Part shown: one piece after another, positions 1 through 40,455 of the stretch | How the letters are laid out: each line of letters opens with the position of its first letter | Position numbering within the stretch: the first letter of the stretch is position 1 | Source: Kiritimatiellia bacterium | GTDB taxonomy: Bacteria > Verrucomicrobiota > Kiritimatiellia > RFP12 > JAAYLN01 | Direction of reading: 5' to 3' | NCBI GenBank assembly: GCA_045627605.1 | Contig: JAZQOA010000072.1 | Span: 28,005 to 92,004, forward strand | DNA length: 64,000 bases | The notes under the pieces: model-generated | The model's input: only the letters and a program-made list of their open reading frames with translations | The model's database searches: none | What the model was told of the DNA's origin: nothing | Program-made: the position numbers and the translations under genes

Positions 1-390
1 GACATCGCGGTCTTCCTCGACATTCACAGCCCGTGGGTGCGCGGCGAGTGGAATGAGCGCGTGTACATGACGTATGGCCCGAGTGAAACCGGCAACGCCG
101 CGAAAAAGCGCTGGGGCGAAATTCTCGAACGGGTGCAGACCGGTTCGCTCGCCTACAAGGTGGCGGACAACTTCCCCTGGAACTTCGGTTGGAACGCGCC
201 GTCAAATGTCGCCGCGGGGCAGCGGAGCGCCGGTGGCTGGGCCTTCGACATCTTGAAACGCCCGCTTCTCGTCGGCACTTACGAAATCCCCTTCGCGAAA
301 GCCAACGGCAAGGTTGTGACGCCGCAGGCCTGCCGTGAATTCGGCGCCGACTCCGCGCGGGTCTTGCGCGAATTCATCGAAACGGCGTAG
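1..390 (+). CDS. hypothetical protein, C-terminal part (5' end outside window)
   Basis: Frame 1 is open from the window edge to TAG at 388-390 with coding-like composition. No family motif recognised beyond a weak FLDIHS string. Confidence 0.5.
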   Translation, partial: DIAVFLDIHSPWVRGEWNERVYMTYGPSETGNAAKKRWGEILERVQTGSLAYKVADNFPWNFGWNAPSNVAAGQRSAGGWAFDILKRPLLVGTYEIPFAKANGKVVTPQACREFGADSARVLREFIETA

Positions 391-463
391 ACGGTGGCAT
401 TTTTTTAAGTCGAATTTGGTATAGTATAGGGAAGTAAAAACTCCAATCGAAAGGAACTGCACG

Positions 464-1261
464 ATGAATCTCCTCGTTCGCACAACGCCTGTCCAGGGCT
501 ACAACAAGATTTTCGACGTGGGCGAATACGGCATGAAGCTCACGAAGTTTGGCCTTCTCCACCTCGCCAAGGGAACCGAGTTCAAGGATGACACGGGCGA
601 GATGGAAGTTGCGCTTGTCCTTGTCGGCGGCAACTTCGCCGCGAAAGGCGACGGGTGGGCGTTTGAGGTCGCGGACGGTCGCAAGAGCCCGTTCACGGGG
701 AAGCCCCATTGCCTCTATCTCCCGCGCCATACGGCCTACGCGATTTCCGCGACGACGGACGTCGAGCTCGCCTTCAACGCCTCGCCCGCGACGCGCGACA
801 CCGCCCGCCCGACGTTGATCAAGCCCGAGGACACCCGCCACATTGCGCTTGGCAAGGACAATTGGACGCGAACCTCCGAAATCATCCTCGACGAGAAGTT
901 CGACTCCGAGCACTTCTATATCGGCGAGGGCATGATCCCCTCCGGCAATTGGTCCGGCTACCCGAGCCACCGGCACGACGTCAACAATCCGCCGACTGAG
1001 CTCGACATGGAGGAGACCTACTTCTACCTCTTCGACCCGCCCTGTGGCTTCGGATTCCAAAGCGTGTACCAGCCCGACGGCTCGCTCAACGAAGCCTACC
1101 GGGTGCAGAACTACGACACCGTCGCGATTGCCCAGGGCTACCACCCGCTCGTCGGGGCGCCCGGCTACCAGATGTACTACCTCTGGACGATGGCCGGCGC
1201 ACAGGGGCGGGGGCTCATCTCGTCCATGGATCCCGCGCATGCGTGGGTGAAGAATGGTTAA
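464..1261 (+). CDS. iolB: 5-deoxy-glucuronate isomerase (IolB)
   Basis: 265 aa with an ATG start. The C-terminal half matches my recollection of B. subtilis IolB (GNWSGYPSHRHD, EETYFY, GYHP, YYLW, DPAHAW). The last codons and stop (AAT GGT TAA) lie inside the left TIR of the adjacent element. Confidence 0.85.
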   Translation: MNLLVRTTPVQGYNKIFDVGEYGMKLTKFGLLHLAKGTEFKDDTGEMEVALVLVGGNFAAKGDGWAFEVADGRKSPFTGKPHCLYLPRHTAYAISATTDVELAFNASPATRDTARPTLIKPEDTRHIALGKDNWTRTSEIILDEKFDSEHFYIGEGMIPSGNWSGYPSHRHDVNNPPTELDMEETYFYLFDPPCGFGFQSVYQPDGSLNEAYRVQNYDTVAIAQGYHPLVGAPGYQMYYLWTMAGAQGRGLISSMDPAHAWVKNG

Positions 1262-1774
1262 ATGGTTAAATGGTTAAATTGCGCAGAGCGCTTTAAATCG
1301 CGCAGGGTGCTTTAAGTTGCACAGAGTGCTTTAAGTTTTCGGGAGCGGGTGATGACGGACGTTGGAAGGGAGCTAAGCGCACGTAGTTTTGACTTTGCCT
1401 TGCGCATTGTGAAGTTGGCGCAGGACCTTTCCGGCGGGAAGGGTGAAAATGTGCTGTCGAGACAAGTTCTGCGAAGCGGGACGAGCATCGGGGCAAATTT
1501 GCGCGAATCGATTTTCGCCCAATCGACGGCGGATTTTGTCTCGAAGTTGAGCATTGCCTTGAAGGAAGCGTCTGAAACGCAGTATTGGCTTGAACTTCTT
1601 CATGCGGCTGGTTATCTTGAAGAGGGGGGAGTTCGTCTCGCTCAAGGACGATGTCGACTGGCTCGTTGGAACGCTCGTAAATGTTGTCAAGACCAACAAG
1701 CGCAAACTCAACCGCCAATAACCCTCAATTTAACCATTTAACCATTTAACTTTTTAACTTTTTAACCATTCAAC
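1256..1774. mobile_element. TIR-bounded AT-rich element carrying a four-helix-bundle protein gene (IVS-like cassette)
   Basis: GTTAAATGGTTAAATGGTTAAAT at 1257-1279 and its exact reverse complement at 1728-1750, followed by degenerate TTTTTAAC copies to 1774. Three internal 18-19-nt units (TGCGCAGAGCGCTTTAAA type) at 1280-1335. AT-rich relative to the flanks. Confidence 0.65.
1352..1721 (+). pseudogene. four-helix-bundle protein (PF05635/TIGR02436-like, '23S rRNA intervening sequence protein'), disrupted by a +1 frameshift at a G6 run
   Basis: ATG at 1352 preceded by GGGAG. The N-terminal 90 aa fit the family pattern (SIGANLRES, LKEASETQYWLELL). After GGGGGG (1624-1629) the family-typical C-terminus EGEFVSLKDDVDWLVGTLVNVVKTNKRKLNRQ* is read only if one G is removed, giving a stop at 1719-1721. 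The as-sequenced frame instead runs on to 1741. Confidence 0.75.
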
Positions 1775-1778
1775 TCCC

Positions 1779-3512
1779 ATGTACTTGCTTGGCATAGACT
1801 TTGGCACGGGCGGATGCAAGGTGACGGCCGTCGATTACGAGGGCCGCCTTGTCGGCGACGCCTCCGTTGAATACGCGACCTATCACGAGCATCCCGGCTG
1901 GAGCGAGCAGGAGCCTTCCGACTGGTACGCGGCGATGTGCCAGGCGCTCGCCAAACTCGCCGCCAAGGGCGTCCGTCTCTCCGAGGTCGCCGCGCTCGCG
2001 CTCGACGGCTCCACGCACAACGCCGTGCTTCTCGGCCGCGACATGCGCCCCCTCCGCCGCACGATCATGTGGACTGACCAGCGCAGCACCGGGGAGTGCG
2101 CCTGGCTCCGCCGTGAAAAGGGCGATGAAATTTTCGCGACCTGCTACCAGATGCCTGCTCCGACCTGGACCTTGCCGCAGCTCATGTGGCTCAAGGCGCA
2201 CGAGCCCGAAGTCCTGGAACAGACGGCGCACGTCCTCTTTGTCAAGGACTACGTCCGCTTCCTCCTGACGGGGCATGTGGCGACGGACTACATCGAGGCG
2301 CAAGGCACGTTGATGTGCGACGTTAAATGGTTAAATAGCCCTACGGGCATTAAATGGTTAAATGGCCCTTCGGGCGTTAAAGAGTTAAATGGCCCTACGG
2401 GCGTTAAAGAGTTAAATGCGGCTTCGCCGTTGAATTTAAAGGCCTCTGGCCGATTTAACAATTTAACCTCTTATTGGGATTCCGATCTTGTCCAATTGTC
2501 AGGCTTGAAGATGTCCGCCATGCCGGAAATCATCAGGCCGACAGACGTTGTCGGCGGAGTGACTGCCGCAGCTTCTGCACAAACGGGGATTCCCGAAGGG
2601 ACGCCGGTTGTCTGCGGCACCAGCGACAGCGCCGTCGAGGACTATGGCGCGGGCGCCGTCGAGCCGGGCGACCTCATCATCAAGCTCGCCACGGCCGGCA
2701 ATGTCAACTCAATGACCGCCGCGCCGCATCCGCATCCAAAGACGCTCACCTACGCCCATGTCGTGCCGGGGATGTGGTACAGTGTGAGCGCCACCAACGC
2801 CGCGGCGCTTTGCCAGCGCTGGATGCGCGACACTTTTTTTGTTAAATGGTTAAATGGCCCTACGGGCATTAAAGAGTTAAATAGCCCTACGGGCATTAAA
2901 GAGTTAAATGCGGCTTCGCCGTTGAATTTAAAGGCCGCAGGCCGATTTAACAATTTAAAGCAATGCGATTTAACTTCTTACGAGGTGATGGATGCCGAAG
3001 CCGCGCAGTCGCCCATTGGCGCGGGAGGGGTGATGTTCCACCCGTACCTCCAGGGCGAGCGCTGCCCGTATTGGGATGCTAATCTCCGCGCCTCGTTTAC
3101 GGGCGTTTCGATTTCGTCGTCGCGCGGCGATTTTTGCCGTGCGCTTCTCGAAGGCGTGGCCTTCTCGTTGCGCGACTGCTACGGCACCCTTGAGGAGATG
3201 GGGCTTCCCGTCTCGCGCATTTTCCTGATTGGCGGAGGCGCGAAGTCCGCGCTCTGGAGCGAGATCGTCTGCAACGTCTTTGGCAAGCCCGTCGCAGTGC
3301 CCGCGCCTGCCGACGCCTCATTTGGCGCGGCGCTTCTGGCGGGCGTTGGCACGGGCGTCTTCGCAGACGCCAAGGCCGCCGTCGCCCAGTGCCTGCACAT
3401 CGCGCGGCGCATCGAGCCGGTGGCGGAGTCCGTCCGGGCCTATGACGCGCTCTACGCCCGCTACAAGGCCGTGCACGATGCCCTCGCGCCGGTTTATTCC
3501 GAAAGCAAATGA
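1779..3512 (+). CDS. xylB: FGGY-family carbohydrate kinase (xylulokinase-like) carrying two in-frame repeat-element insertions
   Basis: 577 aa. N-terminus MYLLGIDFGTGGCKV, then PGWSEQEPSDWY, TDQRS, GTSDS and LIGGGAKS motifs of FGGY kinases. It is about 90 aa longer than typical family members because of two AT-rich insertions. Confidence 0.75.
   Translation: MYLLGIDFGTGGCKVTAVDYEGRLVGDASVEYATYHEHPGWSEQEPSDWYAAMCQALAKLAAKGVRLSEVAALALDGSTHNAVLLGRDMRPLRRTIMWTDQRSTGECAWLRREKGDEIFATCYQMPAPTWTLPQLMWLKAHEPEVLEQTAHVLFVKDYVRFLLTGHVATDYIEAQGTLMCDVKWLNSPTGIKWLNGPSGVKELNGPTGVKELNAASPLNLKASGRFNNLTSYWDSDLVQLSGLKMSAMPEIIRPTDVVGGVTAAASAQTGIPEGTPVVCGTSDSAVEDYGAGAVEPGDLIIKLATAGNVNSMTAAPHPHPKTLTYAHVVPGMWYSVSATNAAALCQRWMRDTFFVKWLNGPTGIKELNSPTGIKELNAASPLNLKAAGRFNNLKQCDLTSYEVMDAEAAQSPIGAGGVMFHPYLQGERCPYWDANLRASFTGVSISSSRGDFCRALLEGVAFSLRDCYGTLEEMGLPVSRIFLIGGGAKSALWSEIVCNVFGKPVAVPAPADASFGAALLAGVGTGVFADAKAAVAQCLHIARRIEPVAESVRAYDALYARYKAVHDALAPVYSESK
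2322..2474 (+). mobile_element. MITE-like (ORF-less) derivative A of the 1256-1774 element family, in frame inside the kinase gene
   Basis: Left end GTTAAATGGTTAAAT (2322-2336). Right end ATTTAACAATTTAAC (2453-2467) pairs with it at 14/15 positions as an inverted repeat. The interior is five roughly 23-27-nt units, each a TTAAA-type block plus an 11-nt GC mini-hairpin (GCCCTACGGGC and similar). Translated as VKWLNSPTG-IKWLNGPSG-VKELNGPTG... Boundaries are +/-10 nt. Confidence 0.7.
2841..2981 (+). mobile_element. MITE-like (ORF-less) derivative B of the same family, in frame inside the kinase gene
   Basis: Same left end GTTAAATGGTTAAAT (2841-2855) and same unit order as copy A, with one fewer GCCC hairpin unit. 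Right end ATTTAACAATTTAAA...ATTTAAC (2945-2974). Same orientation and codon phase as copy A. Confidence 0.7.
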
Positions 3513-3565
3513 CACACGCCGGTTCTGCCTGGGCGGCGCCGGAGCCAACTTCAAGGAGAAATGAG

Positions 3566-4957
3566 ATGAAATTCGCGGTCATGCTTGCCAACCGGGGCTT
3601 TTTCCCCGGGGAACTGATAGCCGGGGCTCGGGAAGACCTCCGCAAGGCGCTTGCCGCCTGTGGACACGAGGCGCTTTTCATGGAAGGCGCGGGGACGCGC
3701 TACGACGCCGTCGAGACGATGGAGGAGGGGCGCAAGTTCGCCGACTTTCTCGCCGCCCGCAAGGGCCAGTACGATGGCGTCATCCTTTCGCAGCCCAACT
3801 TCGGCGATGAAAACGGTGCTTTCGTGGCGCTCCGCGACGCCGGCGTGCCGATCCTCGTCCAGGCCTACCCCGACGAGGCGGGGCTCATGGACTTCGCCCA
3901 CCGCCGCGACGCGCTTTGCGGCAAGCTTGCCATGTGCAACGTGCTGCGCCAGGCCGGGATCAGGCACTCGCTTACGCGTCGCTTCTGCGTCAAGCCGGAC
4001 TCCGCCGACTTCGCCGAGGACTTGCGCCTCTTCGCCGCCACCTGCCGGGTGGCGAACGGCATGCGCCGCGTCAACGTCGGCGCAATTGGCGCGCGCACAA
4101 CGGCTTTCAAGACGGTGCGCTTCGACGAGGTCGCCTTTATGGGCGCCGGCATCAACGTCGAGACCATCGACCTCTCGCTCGTCTTCAAGCTCATGGACGA
4201 AGCCGATCCCGCCGCCGTTGCCGCCATGGGGAAACGCCATGCCGACTACGCGGATTTCGGCACGTGGCCGGAGGAGAAGGCCGAAAACCTCGCCCGCCTC
4301 GGCGTGGCGCTCGACATTGTCCGCGACCGCTTCGGTCTTGACGCCATGGCCATCCGATGCTGGGACGAGCTCCAGCTCCGCTACGGCATCGCCCCGTGCC
4401 TGGCGATGAGCATCCTCAACCAGGACGGCCTACCCGCCTCATGCGAGATGGATGTCGACAATGCGGTCATGATGCGCGCGATCAATCTTGCCTCCGGGGC
4501 TCCCGTCGCGGTTTTCGACGTCAACAACAACTTTGGCGACGCCGCAGACCGCTGCATCATGTTCCATTGTTCAGCGATGCCCGCCGGCATGATGGTCGGC
4601 AAGCCATCCGTCGGTGAACACGCCATGTTCAGGAAGGCTTACGGCGCCGGTTCCGGCGTCGGCATCCTCAACGCCCCCGTCGCGAAGTCGCCCCTTACCG
4701 TTGGCAGCCTCAAGACGGAGAACGGCAAGGTCTGCGCCTTCGTCACGGAAGGCGAAATCACAGACGACAAGATCGAGGAGGCCTTTTTCGGCACGGGCTT
4801 CGTCTTCCGCAAGGACGACGGAGATTGCGAGGCCATGCTCCGCTATATGGCGAGGAACGGCTACCGCCACCACGTTTCCTTTGCCGCCGGCAAGTGGGCG
4901 GCGGCCATCGCGGAAGCCTTCGGCACCTACCTCGGCTACGCTGTCGACAGAATTTAG
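3566..4957 (+). CDS. L-fucose/L-arabinose isomerase family protein
   Basis: 463 aa from the ATG at 3566, with AAGGAG at 3553-3558. The pattern QPNFGDENG...RRDALCGKLAMCNVLRQ resembles the FucI/AraA-family N-terminal and central region. The track start at 3509 is upstream of the SD. Confidence 0.7.
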   Translation: MKFAVMLANRGFFPGELIAGAREDLRKALAACGHEALFMEGAGTRYDAVETMEEGRKFADFLAARKGQYDGVILSQPNFGDENGAFVALRDAGVPILVQAYPDEAGLMDFAHRRDALCGKLAMCNVLRQAGIRHSLTRRFCVKPDSADFAEDLRLFAATCRVANGMRRVNVGAIGARTTAFKTVRFDEVAFMGAGINVETIDLSLVFKLMDEADPAAVAAMGKRHADYADFGTWPEEKAENLARLGVALDIVRDRFGLDAMAIRCWDELQLRYGIAPCLAMSILNQDGLPASCEMDVDNAVMMRAINLASGAPVAVFDVNNNFGDAADRCIMFHCSAMPAGMMVGKPSVGEHAMFRKAYGAGSGVGILNAPVAKSPLTVGSLKTENGKVCAFVTEGEITDDKIEEAFFGTGFVFRKDDGDCEAMLRYMARNGYRHHVSFAAGKWAAAIAEAFGTYLGYAVDRI

Positions 4958-4992
4958 ACGAGCCCGTCTTTTCGCGGAATAGTTATTGACCC

Positions 4993-6843
4993 ATGCAAGA
5001 TTTCATGTATTCGATCGTCGGCGTGCTTGCGCTTGTCATCCACGTCATCGTCAATCCGTCGCTGTTCAGGAGAAGCGGCGCGAACGGCAGGAAGTCCGGC
5101 GCGTATTCCTTCCTGATGCTCGCCATCTTCGCCTACTATGTCACGGACGCCTTCTGGGGGCTTTTCGCCGGGCTCAACAACATCCCGCTCCTCTTTGTCG
5201 ACACGACGATCTACTACGTCGCCATGGCCTCGGCCCTGGCCTGCTGGTCAAGCTACATCATCGAATACCTCGAGCTTGATAGTTTCACCAGCAAGGCGGT
5301 CAAGTACGTCGCCTGGACCTTCTTCTACGCCGAGATCACGGCGCTGGCGGTCAACTTCTTCTACCCCTGCTTCTTCTGGTTCGACGAAAACGACGCCTAC
5401 CAGGCGGGCGCCATCCGCCACGCGGCCCTCTGGATCCAGGTGGTGCTGTTCTTCTTCACCGTCCTCGTCACCGGCCAGAAGGCCCTGCACGTCAAGGGAA
5501 TCGTCCGGTCGCGGCACCTGGCCATCTTCTTCTTCAGCACCGTGATGATGCTGGCCAACTTCTTCCAGGCGCTCTACCCGCTCCTGCCGGTTTACGCGAT
5601 GGGCTGCCTGATTGGCTGCTGCATCCTCCACGTCTACGTCGTCGAGGACGAGCGCGAGGAGTACCGGAAGATCATCGCCGAGGAAAAGAACAGCGCGGAG
5701 GCGGCGAACCGGGCGAAGACGGCCTTCCTCTTCAGCATGTCGCACGACATCCGCACGCCGATGAACGCCATCCTCGGCTACGTGGCCATGGCCAGGAAAA
5801 AGTCCGCCGACCCCGTCGTCACCGACTACCTGAAGAAGGTCGACATCGCGGGAAACCAGCTTCTCGCCCTGGTCAACCAGGTCCTTGAAATGTCGCGCAT
5901 TGAGTCCGGGAGCATCGTCCTCCAGGAGCAGAAGATCAACGTCGAGGAAGGTGCGGAAGTCGTCCGCGCCGTGTATAGGGCGCAGGCAAGGGCCAAGGGA
6001 ATTTCGCTCGACGTCGAACTCCGCGGCGTGACCCACAAGCACCTGATTGGCGATGCCGACTGCATTTCCCGAATCACAAACAACCTGGTCGGAAACGCAA
6101 TCAAGTACACCCGCGAAGGCGGTTCCATCTGCTCCTGCGTGGAGGAGGAGCCCTGCGAAAAGCCCGGGTTCGTCATCTCGCGGTTGACGGTGGAGGACAC
6201 CGGCATTGGAATCAGCGAGGAATACCTCCCGCATATCTTCGAGGAGTTCTCGCGGGAAGATACGTCGACGGTCAGCCATATCCAGGGCTCGGGCCTGGGC
6301 ATGTCCATCGTCAAAAGGCTCGTGGACTTGATGGGCGGCACGATCGAGGTCACGTCAAAGCTCGGCGCGGGGTCGAAGTTCGTCGTGCGGGTTCCGCTGA
6401 AGATCGACACGGAATTTAAGGAGGAGGCCGCGGGCGAAGCCGCGCTGCAGGACGTCTCCCTTAAGGGAATGAAGATCCTCCTGGTCGAGGACAACGAGAT
6501 GAACCGCGAGATCGCGATGGACATCCTCGGCGACACCGGCGCGGAAATCGACGTGGCGGAAGACGGCGTGGTCGCCGTTGAAAAAGTGGCGAATTCCGCG
6601 CCGGGACGGTACGACGTGATTCTGATGGACGTCCAGATGCCGCGCATGGACGGCTACGAGGCCACCCGGCGGATTCGCGCCCTGGCGGACAAGGAGCGGG
6701 CCTCGGTCAAAATCTTCGCAATGACCGCGAACGCCTTTGCCGAAGACAAGCAGAACGCGCTGGACGCCGGAATGGACGGCCATTTGGCAAAGCCAATCGA
6801 CGTCCCGAAGTTGCTGGCCACCCTGTCGGGCTTGAAGAAGTAA
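4993..6843 (+). CDS. hybrid sensor histidine kinase (multi-TM N-terminus, HisKA, HATPase_c, receiver)
   Basis: 616 aa. Hydrophobic N-terminal third, H-box FSMSHDIRTPMNAILGY, G-boxes (DTGIGI, GSGLGMSIV) and C-terminal REC (ILLVEDNEMN...MDVQMPRMDG...AKP). Confidence 0.9.
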   Translation: MQDFMYSIVGVLALVIHVIVNPSLFRRSGANGRKSGAYSFLMLAIFAYYVTDAFWGLFAGLNNIPLLFVDTTIYYVAMASALACWSSYIIEYLELDSFTSKAVKYVAWTFFYAEITALAVNFFYPCFFWFDENDAYQAGAIRHAALWIQVVLFFFTVLVTGQKALHVKGIVRSRHLAIFFFSTVMMLANFFQALYPLLPVYAMGCLIGCCILHVYVVEDEREEYRKIIAEEKNSAEAANRAKTAFLFSMSHDIRTPMNAILGYVAMARKKSADPVVTDYLKKVDIAGNQLLALVNQVLEMSRIESGSIVLQEQKINVEEGAEVVRAVYRAQARAKGISLDVELRGVTHKHLIGDADCISRITNNLVGNAIKYTREGGSICSCVEEEPCEKPGFVISRLTVEDTGIGISEEYLPHIFEEFSREDTSTVSHIQGSGLGMSIVKRLVDLMGGTIEVTSKLGAGSKFVVRVPLKIDTEFKEEAAGEAALQDVSLKGMKILLVEDNEMNREIAMDILGDTGAEIDVAEDGVVAVEKVANSAPGRYDVILMDVQMPRMDGYEATRRIRALADKERASVKIFAMTANAFAEDKQNALDAGMDGHLAKPIDVPKLLATLSGLKK

Positions 6844-22907: not shown

Positions 22908-22955
22908 GTCCTTCTGGGAAACGACGCATTGCAATATCCCGCCCGCGTCAGGGGA

Positions 22956-23015
22956 GGTTGTAGGTTGAAGGTTGTAGGTTGAAGGTTGGAGGTTGAAGGT
23001 TGAAGGTTGGAGGTG
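22956..23015. repeat. heptamer tandem array (GGTTGNA) x ~8.5
   Basis: GGTTGTA GGTTGAA GGTTGTA GGTTGAA GGTTGGA GGTTGAA GGTTGAA GGTTGGA GGTG. Confidence 0.9.
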
Positions 23016-23585
23016 CGAGTGGGGAGTAGGCATCGGTACCGCCGCGCAAAACATCGGTGCTTCTCGTCTCATGTCTCTCGTCTCATGTCTCACGCCCTCG
23101 CTCATCACATGAGGACACGAGACAAGAGACACGAGACGCAAAAGGTTCGCGCCCGGTGCCCCGCAAGAGCCAGTAGGCATCGGTACCGCCGCGCAAAACA
23201 TCGGTGCTTCTCGTCTCTTGTCTCATGTCTCACGCCCTCGCTCATCACATGAGGACACGAGACAAGAGACACGAGACGCGAAAGGTTCGCGCCCGGTGCC
23301 CCGCAAGAGCCGGTAGGCATCGGTACCGCCGCGCAAAACATCGGTGCTTCTCGTTTCTTGTCTCATGTCTCACGCCCTTGCTCATCACATGAGGACACGA
23401 GACAAGAGACACGAGACGCGAAAGGTTCCCGCCCGGTGCCCCGCAAGAGCCGGTAGGCATCGGTACCGCCGCGCAAAACATCGGTGCTTCTCGTCTCATG
23501 TCTCTCGTCTCTTGTCTCACGCCCTTGCTCATCACATGAGGACACGAGACAAGAGACACGAGACGCGAAAGGTTCGCGCCAGCTT
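23016..23585. repeat. four tandem copies of a ~140-bp unit, each with a long heptad-built hairpin
   Basis: The GTAGGCATCGGTACC landmark occurs at 23025, 23173, 23313 and 23453, giving periods of 148, 140 and 140. Units are near-identical. The example stem 23212-23231 / 23259-23278 pairs at 18/20 positions with a 27-nt loop. The last unit ends about 6 nt from the hemW stop. Confidence 0.9.
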
Positions 23586-38289: not shown

Positions 38290-39342
38290 TTATCCCTCGA
38301 GGCTTGAGAAGCGGTATTCCGTCACGGTGCGGTAGGTCTCGCCGGGGCGGAGCGTGGTGGTGGGGAAGTCCGGGCGGTTGGGCGTGTTCGGGTAGTGCTG
38401 CGTTTCGAGCGCGAGGTAACTGCGGCGGGCGAGGGGAAGCCCGTTCTTCATCGTCCAGCCATCCTTGATGAAGTTGCCGGCGTAGAACTGTACGCCGACT
38501 TGGTCGGACCACACTTCCATCGCGACTTTTTCACCGCGCATTTCCGCGATTTTCCGGAACCCCGAGCCGTTGAGGCACCAGTTGTGGTCGTAGCCGGGGC
38601 CGAACTGCAGCACGGGATCGGGATCGTCGATGCGTTCACCGACCTTGTGGAAGGCGCGGAAGTCGAAGGGCGTGCCCGCGACGGGGCGCGGGTCGCCGAC
38701 GGGTTTGAGGTTGGCGTCGACGGCGAGGAAGGTGTCGGCGTCGATCATCAGCTCCTGGTCGAGGATTGTGCCGGCGCCATTCATGTTGAAGTAGGCGTGC
38801 TGGGTCATGTTGATTGGGGTGGGCTTGGTCGTTGTCGCCTCGTATTCAATGCGCCAGGCGTTGCCCGCCGTCACGGTGTAGGTGACTTTGGCGTCGATGG
38901 CGCCGGGATAGCCCTCCTCGCCATCGGGAAAGGACTTCGAGAAAACGATGCCGACGTCGTCGCCGCGTGAGAAAGGGGCGGCGTCCCAGACGTATTTGTC
39001 CCAGCCGCGGCGTCCGCCATGAAGGGAGGCGCAGTGTTTGGCGTCGTTGCAGAAAAGTGTGTAGTCCTTGCCGTCGAGCGAGAACTTGCCGTTTGCAATG
39101 CGGTTGCCGAAACGCCCGATGATGGCGCCGAAGAAGGCGTCGGAGTTTTCCCAGCCGGCGGGGGAGTCAAAACCGACAGTGACATCCGTGGACTTGCCGT
39201 CCTTGCCCGGTACGAGCAGGCGGTTGATTCGCCCGCCGTAGTTGGTGACCTCGAGCACGAGGCCGCCTTTCCCGCGAAGGGTCCAGATCGACGCCTTCTC
39301 GCCGAATTTCGTTGTGCCAAATGGTTTTTCTGAGAAGTCCAT
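38290..39342 (-). CDS. galM: aldose 1-epimerase (galactose mutarotase)
   Basis: 350 aa. NRIANGKF, LHGG..GWDK.VW, HAYFN and ETQHYPN motifs of the mutarotase family. Confidence 0.85.
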   Translation of the reverse strand: MDFSEKPFGTTKFGEKASIWTLRGKGGLVLEVTNYGGRINRLLVPGKDGKSTDVTVGFDSPAGWENSDAFFGAIIGRFGNRIANGKFSLDGKDYTLFCNDAKHCASLHGGRRGWDKYVWDAAPFSRGDDVGIVFSKSFPDGEEGYPGAIDAKVTYTVTAGNAWRIEYEATTTKPTPINMTQHAYFNMNGAGTILDQELMIDADTFLAVDANLKPVGDPRPVAGTPFDFRAFHKVGERIDDPDPVLQFGPGYDHNWCLNGSGFRKIAEMRGEKVAMEVWSDQVGVQFYAGNFIKDGWTMKNGLPLARRSYLALETQHYPNTPNRPDFPTTTLRPGETYRTVTEYRFSSLEG

Positions 39343-39432
39343 GGATGAGGTTCCTTTTTGCTAATTGGATGAAACGCCGAAAATGATTATAGCATTTTTC
39401 AGGACGCACGCCGAGAGGCTTCGCTTCGGCTC

Positions 39433-39502
39433 GATGCTCAGATGCTCGGATGCTCGATGTTCGGATGCTCTGATGCTCGATGTTCGGATGCTCGGATGCT
39501 CT
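39433..39502. repeat. 7-8-nt tandem array (GATGCTCN) x 9 in a divergent promoter region
   Basis: GATGCTCA GATGCTCG GATGCTC GATGTTCG GATGCTCT GATGCTC GATGTTCG GATGCTCG GATGCTCT, between galM (start 39342, minus) and the SGNH gene (start 39583, plus). Confidence 0.85.
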
Positions 39503-39582: not shown

Positions 39583-40455
39583 ATGAAAATGCATCATGTA
39601 GTGGCCGCGGCAGTTTTCCTGGCGGCGTTTGCGGCGCAGGCGGAATTCATCGTCAAGAGCGGTGATGTACTCGCCTTTCTGGGCGATTCGATCACCCAGC
39701 AAGGGCAGGGATTGCCTGTCGGGTACGTCAACCTCGTGTTGCATTCGCTCACGAAGGAAGGGGTCGATGTGAAACCCGTCAAGGCTGGCATTTCCGGGCA
39801 CAAGTCCGACAACATGCTCGGGCGGCTTGATCGCGATGTCCTTGGCAAGGGCGCGAAGGTCATGACGTTGTCGTGCGGCGTCAACGACGTGTGGCACCAG
39901 GACGGCGGGCGCGGCGTCCTGCTCGACGCCTTCAAGACGAACGTGACCGCGATCCTCGACAAGTGCGCCGCCTCCAACTGCACGGTGGTGGTGATGACGG
40001 CGTCGATGTTCCAGTACCACGGCTGGGAAAAGGACCCCCACAACGTGAAGCTCGCGCCCTACAACGACTTCCTGCGCGAAATCGCCGCCGCGCGCAAGCT
40101 CCCGCTTGCGGACGTCAACAAGGCGATGTGGGAAGCCTATGCCGCCGATCCCGAGGGACGGCTCACGGCGGATGGCGTCCACATGAACTGGTCGGGCAAT
40201 TTCCTGATGGCGAAATGCGTCCTCGCCGCGCTTGGGGCCGACGCCGCGAAGCTTGCGGCCTATGAGCGCGATTGGCGCGCAATTATTGGCGGCTCGGAAC
40301 TGAAAATTCCGCTTTCAATCGACGAGATGGACAAGCTCAAGGCCGCTGCCGGCCAAATGGGCGAATCCAGTCAGGTTGCCGACTTCGTCCGTGTGCGCTG
40401 TGGACTCACGGATGGCCGCGGTTCGCATGCCCCGATGCCGGAGCCTGTCAAGTGA
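39583..40455 (+). CDS. secreted SGNH/GDSL hydrolase
   Basis: 290 aa with a signal peptide. LAFLGDSITQQG, CGVNDV and DGVHMN blocks. Confidence 0.8.
   Translation: MKMHHVVAAAVFLAAFAAQAEFIVKSGDVLAFLGDSITQQGQGLPVGYVNLVLHSLTKEGVDVKPVKAGISGHKSDNMLGRLDRDVLGKGAKVMTLSCGVNDVWHQDGGRGVLLDAFKTNVTAILDKCAASNCTVVVMTASMFQYHGWEKDPHNVKLAPYNDFLREIAAARKLPLADVNKAMWEAYAADPEGRLTADGVHMNWSGNFLMAKCVLAALGADAAKLAAYERDWRAIIGGSELKIPLSIDEMDKLKAAAGQMGESSQVADFVRVRCGLTDGRGSHAPMPEPVK

Follow-up and report, generated by a model that had tools for sequence, protein, structure and literature searches.

The window analyzed here, a stretch of 64,000 nucleotides (nt) from a Kiritimatiellia genome (contig JAZQOA010000072.1), carries a small cassette at the junction between iolB and an FGGY-family kinase gene of a sugar-catabolic operon. 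We consider it probable that this is a hairpin-bounded cassette of the intervening sequence (IVS) type, in which a promoterless PF05635 gene lies in the sense orientation in the loop of a long stem with arms of tandem 8-nt repeats. The IVS-type reading is well supported by the anatomy of the cassette together with comparative evidence. The site is a junction between two protein-coding genes and not the interior of a 23S rRNA gene (helix 25 or 45), and comparison with homologous loci indicates that the cassette is one member of a large population of similarly built cassettes inside operons. The features at the junction, including palindromic elements that lack an open reading frame (ORF), are as follows.

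464 to 1261, plus strand: iolB (5-deoxy-glucuronate isomerase; TIGR04378, 217 bits; PF04962)
1256 to 1281, plus strand: left arm, (GGTTAAAT)x3 at 1256-1279 followed by TG, with TAA in all three frames
1280 to 1335, plus strand: three tandem units of 18-19 nt, each a 4-bp GC mini-hairpin with a 3-nt loop followed by TTTAAR
1341 to 1345, plus strand: GGGAG, a Shine-Dalgarno (SD)-like site read from the sequence, 6 nt 5' of the ATG at 1352
1352 to 1721, plus strand: PF05635/TIGR02436 four-helix-bundle gene ('23S rRNA IVS protein', S23 family), stop TAA at 1719-1721
1726 to 1774, plus strand: right arm, about six copies of ATTTAACC/TTTTAACT, with the perfect partner of the left arm at 1726-1750
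1779 to 3512, plus strand: FGGY-family kinase (XylB-like; TIGR01312, 380.7 bits in three stretches) with two in-frame ORF-less palindromic elements inside
2322 to 2468, plus strand: kinase insert 1, in frame, consisting of GTTAAATGGTTAAAT, 27-nt units, a centre and ATTTAACAATTTAACC
2841 to 2974, plus strand: kinase insert 2, in frame, of the same family as insert 1

The inverted repeats at the ends of the cassette are real and longer than the 23/23 given in the original prediction, as 1257-1281 pairs with 1726-1750 without a mismatch (25/25) and an imperfect extension covers 36 nt at 81% (1244-1279 with 1744-1779). The degenerate repeat copies that had been described up to 1774 were recovered as the ATTTAACC/TTTTAACT run, in which the surplus copies are U-rich and end 5 nt short of the kinase ATG. 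Likewise, the end of iolB, AAT GGT TAA (1253-1261), does fall within the first repeat units of the left arm, and the kinase does start at 1779. The motif GTTAAATGGTTAAAT, with up to two mismatches allowed, occurs 13 times in the window against 0 expected, and all 13 occurrences lie within 1257-2959. Between the arms, the three mini-hairpin units (1280-1297, 1298-1316 and 1317-1335), the GGGAG site and the four-helix-bundle gene are all present where they had been read. The stems of the three units are GCGC/GCGC, GCGC/GTGC with one G.T pair, and GCAC/GTGC with both sides changed. The predicted AT-rich island in GC-rich DNA also holds, with 48.4% GC in the cassette vs 63.2% in the window, and the GC content at third codon positions (GC3) is 0.57 in the four-helix-bundle gene vs 0.85 in iolB and the kinase alike. 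Promoter and terminator scans found no promoter-like site at the cassette and terminator-like sites at chance level, and an Rfam search of positions 1-4000 at a permissive threshold found no RNA family. The original prediction also proposed that the arms pair into a stem in a co-transcript; in the predicted minimum free energy (MFE) fold of the RNA from 1245 to 1785 the arm stem closes the cassette (z = -4.0), in agreement with this.

Near-identical strains show how the repeat blocks behave over short times. The comparison includes the window and four metagenome contigs (L001-L004) with the same iolB protein and flanks that are 99.3-99.9% identical. In these five strains, the left blocks are 79/117/87/78/106 nt and the right arms 52/76/84/44/60 nt long, with 3-4 copies in the left arm, 4-9 copies in the right arm, and 3-5 mini-hairpin units in which the unit types are shuffled. 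The intergenic blocks, which are short enough for their lengths to be trusted, vary by units of 8 and 19 nt, and their length modulo 3 is unconstrained. Three GGTTAAAT units in a row place a TAA in every frame. Despite this variation, the arm stem is kept in all five strains, with mismatch-free pairing over 25/22/33/15/31 nt and duplex energies between -35 and -53 kcal/mol. The mini-hairpin stems also survive G.T and double changes, and the 73 hairpins found across the strains represent about ten stem types. Judged from these alignments, arm and hairpin units gain and lose copies quickly. Chance or an assembly artefact as the source of the repeats was rejected, as five independent assemblies and 57 of the 74 homologous loci have the same architecture. 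In a pig-gut organism (L137-L146, 3370-3450), we additionally observed a cassette between moxR and DUF58 whose right arm holds 3-8 copies of GCTTAACC across ten samples with an identical four-helix-bundle protein.

The homologous loci were obtained by fetching 80 loci that encode proteins 49-70% identical to the four-helix-bundle protein, 74 of which had enough flank for an inverted-repeat test in which the 150 nt upstream were compared with the 150 nt downstream (z > 4 against shuffles). A flanking inverted repeat was detected at 57 of these 74 homologues vs 1 of 64 non-adjacent control ORFs of the same loci. Arm statistics were collected from 60 positive cassettes, reference loci included, and gave a median arm length of 30 nt. 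The arm period was 7 in 30 cassettes (6 of them scored as 14-nt), 8 in 10 and without a clear value in 20, while a period of 6 or 9 was never observed among the 60. Stops in all three frames were present in 40 of the 60 left arms vs 24% of shuffled arms. On the sense strand, left arms are rich in purines and poor in C (8.9% vs 19.8% G), and right arms are their mirror image. The arm units are 7 or 8 nt long and stop-rich, closing all three frames on both strands. None of the 20 loci tested for it had the cassette inside an rRNA gene. The upstream neighbour is co-directional with the four-helix-bundle gene in 39/40 loci and both neighbours are in 35/40, with gaps of tens of bases, and the host operons are very diverse and functionally unrelated. 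In 22 of 23 loci, GC3 is lower in the four-helix-bundle gene than in either neighbour, by 0.31 on average, even in old cassettes (L001/L136), which points to a compositional regime specific to the cassette.

The arms differ in sequence between loci while their pairing is retained. At a GlcD|GlcF-like junction occupied in 15 orthologous loci, the arm motifs are TTAAAT, TTAAGT, TGAAAT, CTAAGTG or GGATTAAG, and in each locus the right arm is the reverse complement of the left, often with GC mini-hairpins interleaved. Cassettes with different heptamers are also found together on one contig, with three within 3.4 kb in L185 (1-3378) and two in L218. These alignments indicate that the two arms co-evolve, keeping their complementarity while the sequence drifts. 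Differing arm units on one contig and at orthologous sites argue against a common protein-binding site or transposase end, and for intramolecular pairing.

The membership of the cassette gene in the four-helix-bundle family stands, with profile matches above cut-off to PF05635 (72.9 bits, cut-off 33.8) and TIGR02436 (85.0 bits, cut-off 24). The original prediction had overlooked, however, that the ORF is not intact in the window. A +1 frameshift at a run of six G (G6, 1624-1629) breaks it and leaves helix 4 out of frame; the Pfam match breaks off at profile position 88/106 and the TIGRFAM match at 83/109, and tblastn reports two segments, 1352-1627 and 1617-1718. Owing to this frameshift the window copy does not encode a complete four-helix protein of about 110-130 amino acids (aa). 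The near-identical contigs L001-L004 (4/4) have G5 instead of G6 and an intact protein of 122 aa. The AlphaFold2 model of this intact protein has four helices with a predicted local distance difference test (pLDDT) score of 94.6, and matches 2RLD, the S23-family protein BT_0352 of B. thetaiotaomicron, with template modelling (TM) scores of 0.89/0.96 and 46% identity. It also superposes on 2GSC (XCC0516), while PADLOC and PHROGs gave no match to the intact protein. Between L001 and L136, the ratio of nonsynonymous to synonymous substitution rates (dN/dS) of the four-helix-bundle gene is 0.065, vs 0.10 for iolB and 0.20 for the kinase, with dS > 1. These ratios indicate that the four-helix-bundle protein is under strong purifying selection.

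A comparison with a relative lacking the element, as suggested in the original prediction, was possible with L151 (iolB 82% identical to that of the window, kinase about 70% over aligned residues). Here, the iolB|kinase junction is empty, GCTAATGTCC, with iolB ending in ...HAWVKGS* and its stop overlapping the kinase start (TAATG). Relative to this related genome the cassette is, by alignment, an insertion. A target duplication was looked for between the filled (window) and empty (L151) junctions and none was present; the borders of the kinase inserts are too eroded to judge. In L136, a cassette with fewer repeats occupies the same iolB|kinase junction and encodes a four-helix-bundle protein 79% identical to ours. 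This occupancy at dS > 1, together with the dN/dS of 0.065, shows that the cassette is old at this site and that its protein is selected. The closest relatives elsewhere lie between a GlcD-like and a GlcF-like gene (L234, 77% identical) and after an AP_endonuc_2 gene (L233, 74% identical), both with TTAAA-type arms. In L137 and L162, the cassettes have GGTTAAGC arms in common and genes that are 75% identical, while both flanks are non-homologous and belong to unrelated operons. Close relatives at other junctions with similar arms suggest that gene and arms travel together, but rarely. Of the original description as an IVS-type selfish cassette living in an operon, the IVS anatomy in an mRNA operon is therefore retained, while 'selfish' is not established in view of the purifying selection and the residence through dS > 1. 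Two further candidates were rejected: L232 as a second empty site, where the upstream gene is not iolB, and L127 as an insertion within an ORF, where the element lies at an uncertain N-terminus. As a separate observation, L136 has a small PDDEXK_3 (PF13366) gene between PfkB and iolB (4660-5142), with overlapping start and stop and no arms of repeats. Here, too, a small gene has been inserted at the junction of an operon, in a different style.

The closest described system is the IVS of 23S rRNA that carries an S23p/PF05635 ORF, reported in Leptospira, Coxiella burnetii and Xanthomonas (PMC4990558). In Coxiella, a 28-bp terminal stem is cut by RNase III, the S23p ORF lies in the loop, and tandem heptamers (GACAGAT x2-3) vary in number between strains (PMC4990558). 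The cassette resembles these IVSs in its complementary arms, a stem of about 25-28 bp, a PF05635 ORF in the loop, a size of about 0.45-0.5 kb, the sense orientation inside a host transcription unit, and tandem heptamer or octamer units beside the ORF whose copy number differs among strains. The perfect stem of 22-33 bp in four of the five strains is compatible with excision by RNase III. However, the host here is a protein-coding operon rather than helix 25 or 45 of 23S rRNA, and the arms contribute the stop codon of the gene before them and a putative leader for the gene that follows. Additionally, the ORF has a good SD site and is under purifying selection, while S23p of Coxiella is apparently not translated and decaying (PMC4990558). 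The original prediction knew of no described family with this architecture. The architecture itself is known from rRNA IVSs (PMC4990558), but our searches of the PF05635/IVS literature turned up no account of such cassettes in mRNA operons, of how general they are or of the 7/8-nt rule.

Two other systems are informative for the stem. Correia repeats of Neisseria are inverted repeats cut by RNase III in mRNAs (PMC10969869); like the cassette, they are bounded by inverted repeats, and they are co-transcribed with neighbouring genes, as is presumed for the cassette. In function, they are the closest analogue of both the stem and the ORF-less copies. They differ in being a miniature inverted-repeat transposable element (MITE) without a gene, with one family-wide repeat and a TA target duplication, and in not being built of 7-8-nt tandem units. 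In the 5' untranslated region of H. influenzae hmw1A, a heptamer repeat forms one arm of a hairpin cut by RNase III, and both the hairpin and RNase III are needed for changes in repeat number (PMC12721329). The transcribed tandem heptamer array that serves as a hairpin arm with a variable repeat number makes hmw1A the mechanistic precedent that links stem, RNase III and repeat instability, although it is a single adhesin locus in which the partner arm is a G-rich region rather than mirrored repeats and the hairpin holds no gene.

The proposed fold relationship to Avd, the accessory protein of diversity-generating retroelements (DGRs), was confirmed at the level of fold, with TM scores to 4DWL of 0.67-0.73 (query-normalised) and 0.75-0.81 (target-normalised), TM scores of 0.73/0.80 to the Avd chain of 8UB7, and Avd matches at E-values of 0.1-0.3. 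A profile search of the PDB returned only 2RLD and 2GSC and no sequence-level match to Avd. No reverse transcriptase was present among Pfam labels in about 10 kb on each side in L001 or among the six ORFs in 37-4954 covered by the window scan; template and variable repeats were not searched for. Within this coverage, and with Avd matched at fold level only, a DGR was judged unlikely.

We propose that the cassette is co-transcribed with the operon. The arms would then pair in the RNA into a stem of at least 22 bp that may be cut by RNase III, by analogy with rRNA IVSs and Correia elements. Such a cut would split the iolB and kinase messages and free a four-helix-bundle mRNA with paired ends. 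The left arm would supply the upstream gene with its stop, and the right-arm surplus, unpaired and rich in U/A, would form a leader for the downstream gene. Slippage in copy number might tune the length of the stem. New copies would arise rarely, with the gene and its arms moving as one. ORF-less palindromic derivatives would persist, and inside genes only versions that keep the frame.

Several points weigh against this interpretation. Co-transcription and cleavage are inferred, and a stem at the DNA level, as a cruciform or a single-stranded hairpin, explains the covariation of the arms equally well. The cassette has resided long at its junction, and we saw neither a recent transposition nor a target duplication or mobility enzyme. 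The window copy may be a pseudogene allele, or the G6 run an assembly error. The kinase has no SD site after the cassette, and the insertion may thus harm downstream expression rather than be neutral. No significant flanking repeat was found at 17 of the 74 homologues. Finally, the copy numbers of kinase repeats that exceed the assembler's 141-mer (over 141 nt) derive from short reads, and these arrays may be partly misassembled.

The terminal inverted repeats, the AT-rich island and the empty site would also fit a classical DNA transposon or MITE, where the repeats are binding sites for a transposase encoded elsewhere, the four-helix-bundle gene is carried along as a passenger, and the kinase inserts represent non-autonomous copies. 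Three elements within 1.7 kb share their terminal 15-mer, and several Kiritimatiellae metagenome-assembled genomes (MAGs) contain ORF-less palindromes with this motif, frequently at the ends of contigs; both observations agree with a transposon as well. We nevertheless regard a transposon as quite improbable, as the arms differ within one contig and between orthologous sites, and one transposase could not recognise them all. Furthermore, the arms are tandem 7-8-nt repeats of variable number and not fixed ends, the filled and empty junctions differ by no target duplication, no transposase was seen in the loci read, and the orientation follows the host operon strictly (39/40 upstream neighbours). 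A further alternative is a DNA-level recombination cassette analogous to integron attC sites, with arms that fold in single-stranded DNA (ssDNA) and are recognised by shape rather than by sequence. The conserved structure with varying sequence and the promoterless gene co-oriented with host transcription would fit it; the ssDNA fold of an ORF-less element is also better than that of shuffles (z = -2.4). However, the arms bracket the gene on both sides instead of forming one 3' site, and the cassettes are solitary at operon junctions with no arrays beside an integrase, and on these grounds an integron-like cassette was judged very unlikely. The left arms are in addition C-poor relative to G, a strand asymmetry that points to RNA or translation rather than DNA, and the documented rRNA relatives act at the RNA level.

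A different possibility is that the cassette is a resident regulatory module that does not move, with the four-helix-bundle protein as a host factor, the repeat-built stem as a tunable, phase-variable RNA switch governing how strongly upstream genes are expressed relative to downstream ones, and the other copies as old duplications. The low dN/dS and the occupancy of the site in a relative at dS > 1 are in line with this, as are the retention of the cassette in the 15 loci of the GlcD|GlcF-like junction and the hypervariable copy number among strains in units that are not multiples of 3. Control of hmw1A by heptamer repeat, hairpin and RNase III provides a precedent (PMC12721329). On the other hand, the host operons are of great diversity and unrelated in function, a GC3 about 0.3 below both neighbours in 22/23 loci marks a compositional island, the family resides in rRNA IVSs with an apparently untranslated and decaying S23p in Coxiella (PMC4990558), and the frameshifted window copy suggests that the gene is dispensable. 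We therefore find a resident module rather unlikely, while it overlaps with the IVS-type reading in mechanism and differs only on who benefits.

The two kinase inserts have the terminal 15-mer, the 8-mer arm motif and the overall palindromic layout of the cassette. The original view of the cassette as the gene-carrying relative of these ORF-less copies is supported by the 8-mer arm motif common to all three. The 27-nt unit of insert 1 consists of a 15-nt AT block plus a GCCC-N3-GGGC hairpin. In four strains, insert 1 measures 147/294/189/216 nt, all 0 modulo 3, and insert 2 measures 134/176/161/188 nt, with differences that are multiples of 3. The inserts contain no stops and change length in units of 27, 42, 15 and 6 nt, and the kinase remains open in these strains at 577/640/600/618 aa. 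Within the gene, GGTTAAAT occurs in at most two consecutive copies, where a third would create TAA. The AlphaFold model of the kinase has a confident core (predicted TM score 0.80), and residues 198-228 and 363-396, which correspond to the inserts, have pLDDT < 50; the inserts are thus predicted to be disordered loops without structure.

The two positions recur as insertion hot spots in a set of 120 kinase homologues of 489-639 aa. Translated TTTAACAATTTAAAG, which reads FNNLK/LNLKA, is found in many of these inserts. The same inserts of GTTAAATGGTTAAAT plus GCCCTWCGGGC are present at both positions of a kinase that is 73% identical and encoded in another gene context; the kinase inserts are therefore old. 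In L151, the kinase lacks insert 1 and has insert 2. Translated palindromic arrays of variable copy number are also present in the kinases of L001-L003 and L232. In L136 (6428-8128), the orthologous kinase has repeats of another family (peptides RRDAEAQRE...SLRLCG), once at hot spot 1 and again at the C-terminus, so several families of palindromic elements use the same tolerant sites.

The inserts are comparable to Rickettsia palindromic elements (RPEs), which are in-frame palindromic inserts in genes (PMC10969869). As for RPEs, palindromes of about 150 bp lie in frame in an enzyme gene and are translated as extra loops; at 2322-2468 and 2841-2974, this is the case in a functional protein gene with a kinase dN/dS of 0.20. 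The kinase elements differ in phylum and sequence, in being modular arrays of 27-, 42- and 15-nt units with strain-variable copy number, and in sharing a terminal motif with a gene-carrying cassette. Such in-frame inserts of variable copy number extend the concept of palindromic elements inside proteins beyond Rickettsia.

In a strict pattern scan of the genome collection, several MAGs of gut Kiritimatiellae had palindromes of this motif without an ORF at operon junctions, frequently at the end of a contig; one MAG each of Bacteroidetes, Acidiferrales and Pirellulales contained such palindromes as well. A plain 15-mer scan of viral contigs gave single chance matches and was uninformative. In one Bacteroidetes MAG (L125, 440-670), an ORF-less hairpin has arms of about 100 nt composed of GGTTAAAT/GGCTGAAT octamers around a 36-nt loop.

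The IVSs of rRNA, with their S23p/PF05635 ORFs, were already known in the early 1990s, yet no account of their origin or function has gained acceptance. If the IVS-type unit is routine in mRNA operons, the question of their origin and function becomes testable in tractable gut Bacteroidota. As a tentative extension, which may well prove wrong, PF05635 genes, which form one of the large bacterial families of unknown function, could in general be the cargo of an uncatalogued class of RNA-hairpin-bounded cassettes with self-renewing arms of 7-8-nt repeats that colonise operon junctions across phyla. The IVSs of 23S rRNA would then be the case that was noticed first, and the cassette might be maintained, tuned or propagated through the action of the pentameric four-helix-bundle protein and RNase III on its stem. 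Routine embedding of the unit in mRNA operons would explain why PF05635 genes are found as scattered compositional islands on short, broken contigs. It would also mean that operons contain a widespread built-in site for mRNA processing and a source of repeat-driven strain variation that current annotation ignores.

Tandem repeats of similar unit length occur at two other places in the window. At 22955-23014, an array of (AGGTTGW)x8.6, for which no inverted partner was found when looked for, is followed at 23025-23580 by 3.9 copies of a 140-nt unit. Each of these units contains a hairpin with arms of tandem heptamers, TCTCGTC/TCATGTC vs GACACGA/GACAAGA. At 39429-39501, an octamer array, (GCTCGGAT)x9.5, occupies a divergent intergenic region flanked by a gene on the minus strand that ends at 39342 and one on the plus strand that starts at 39583.

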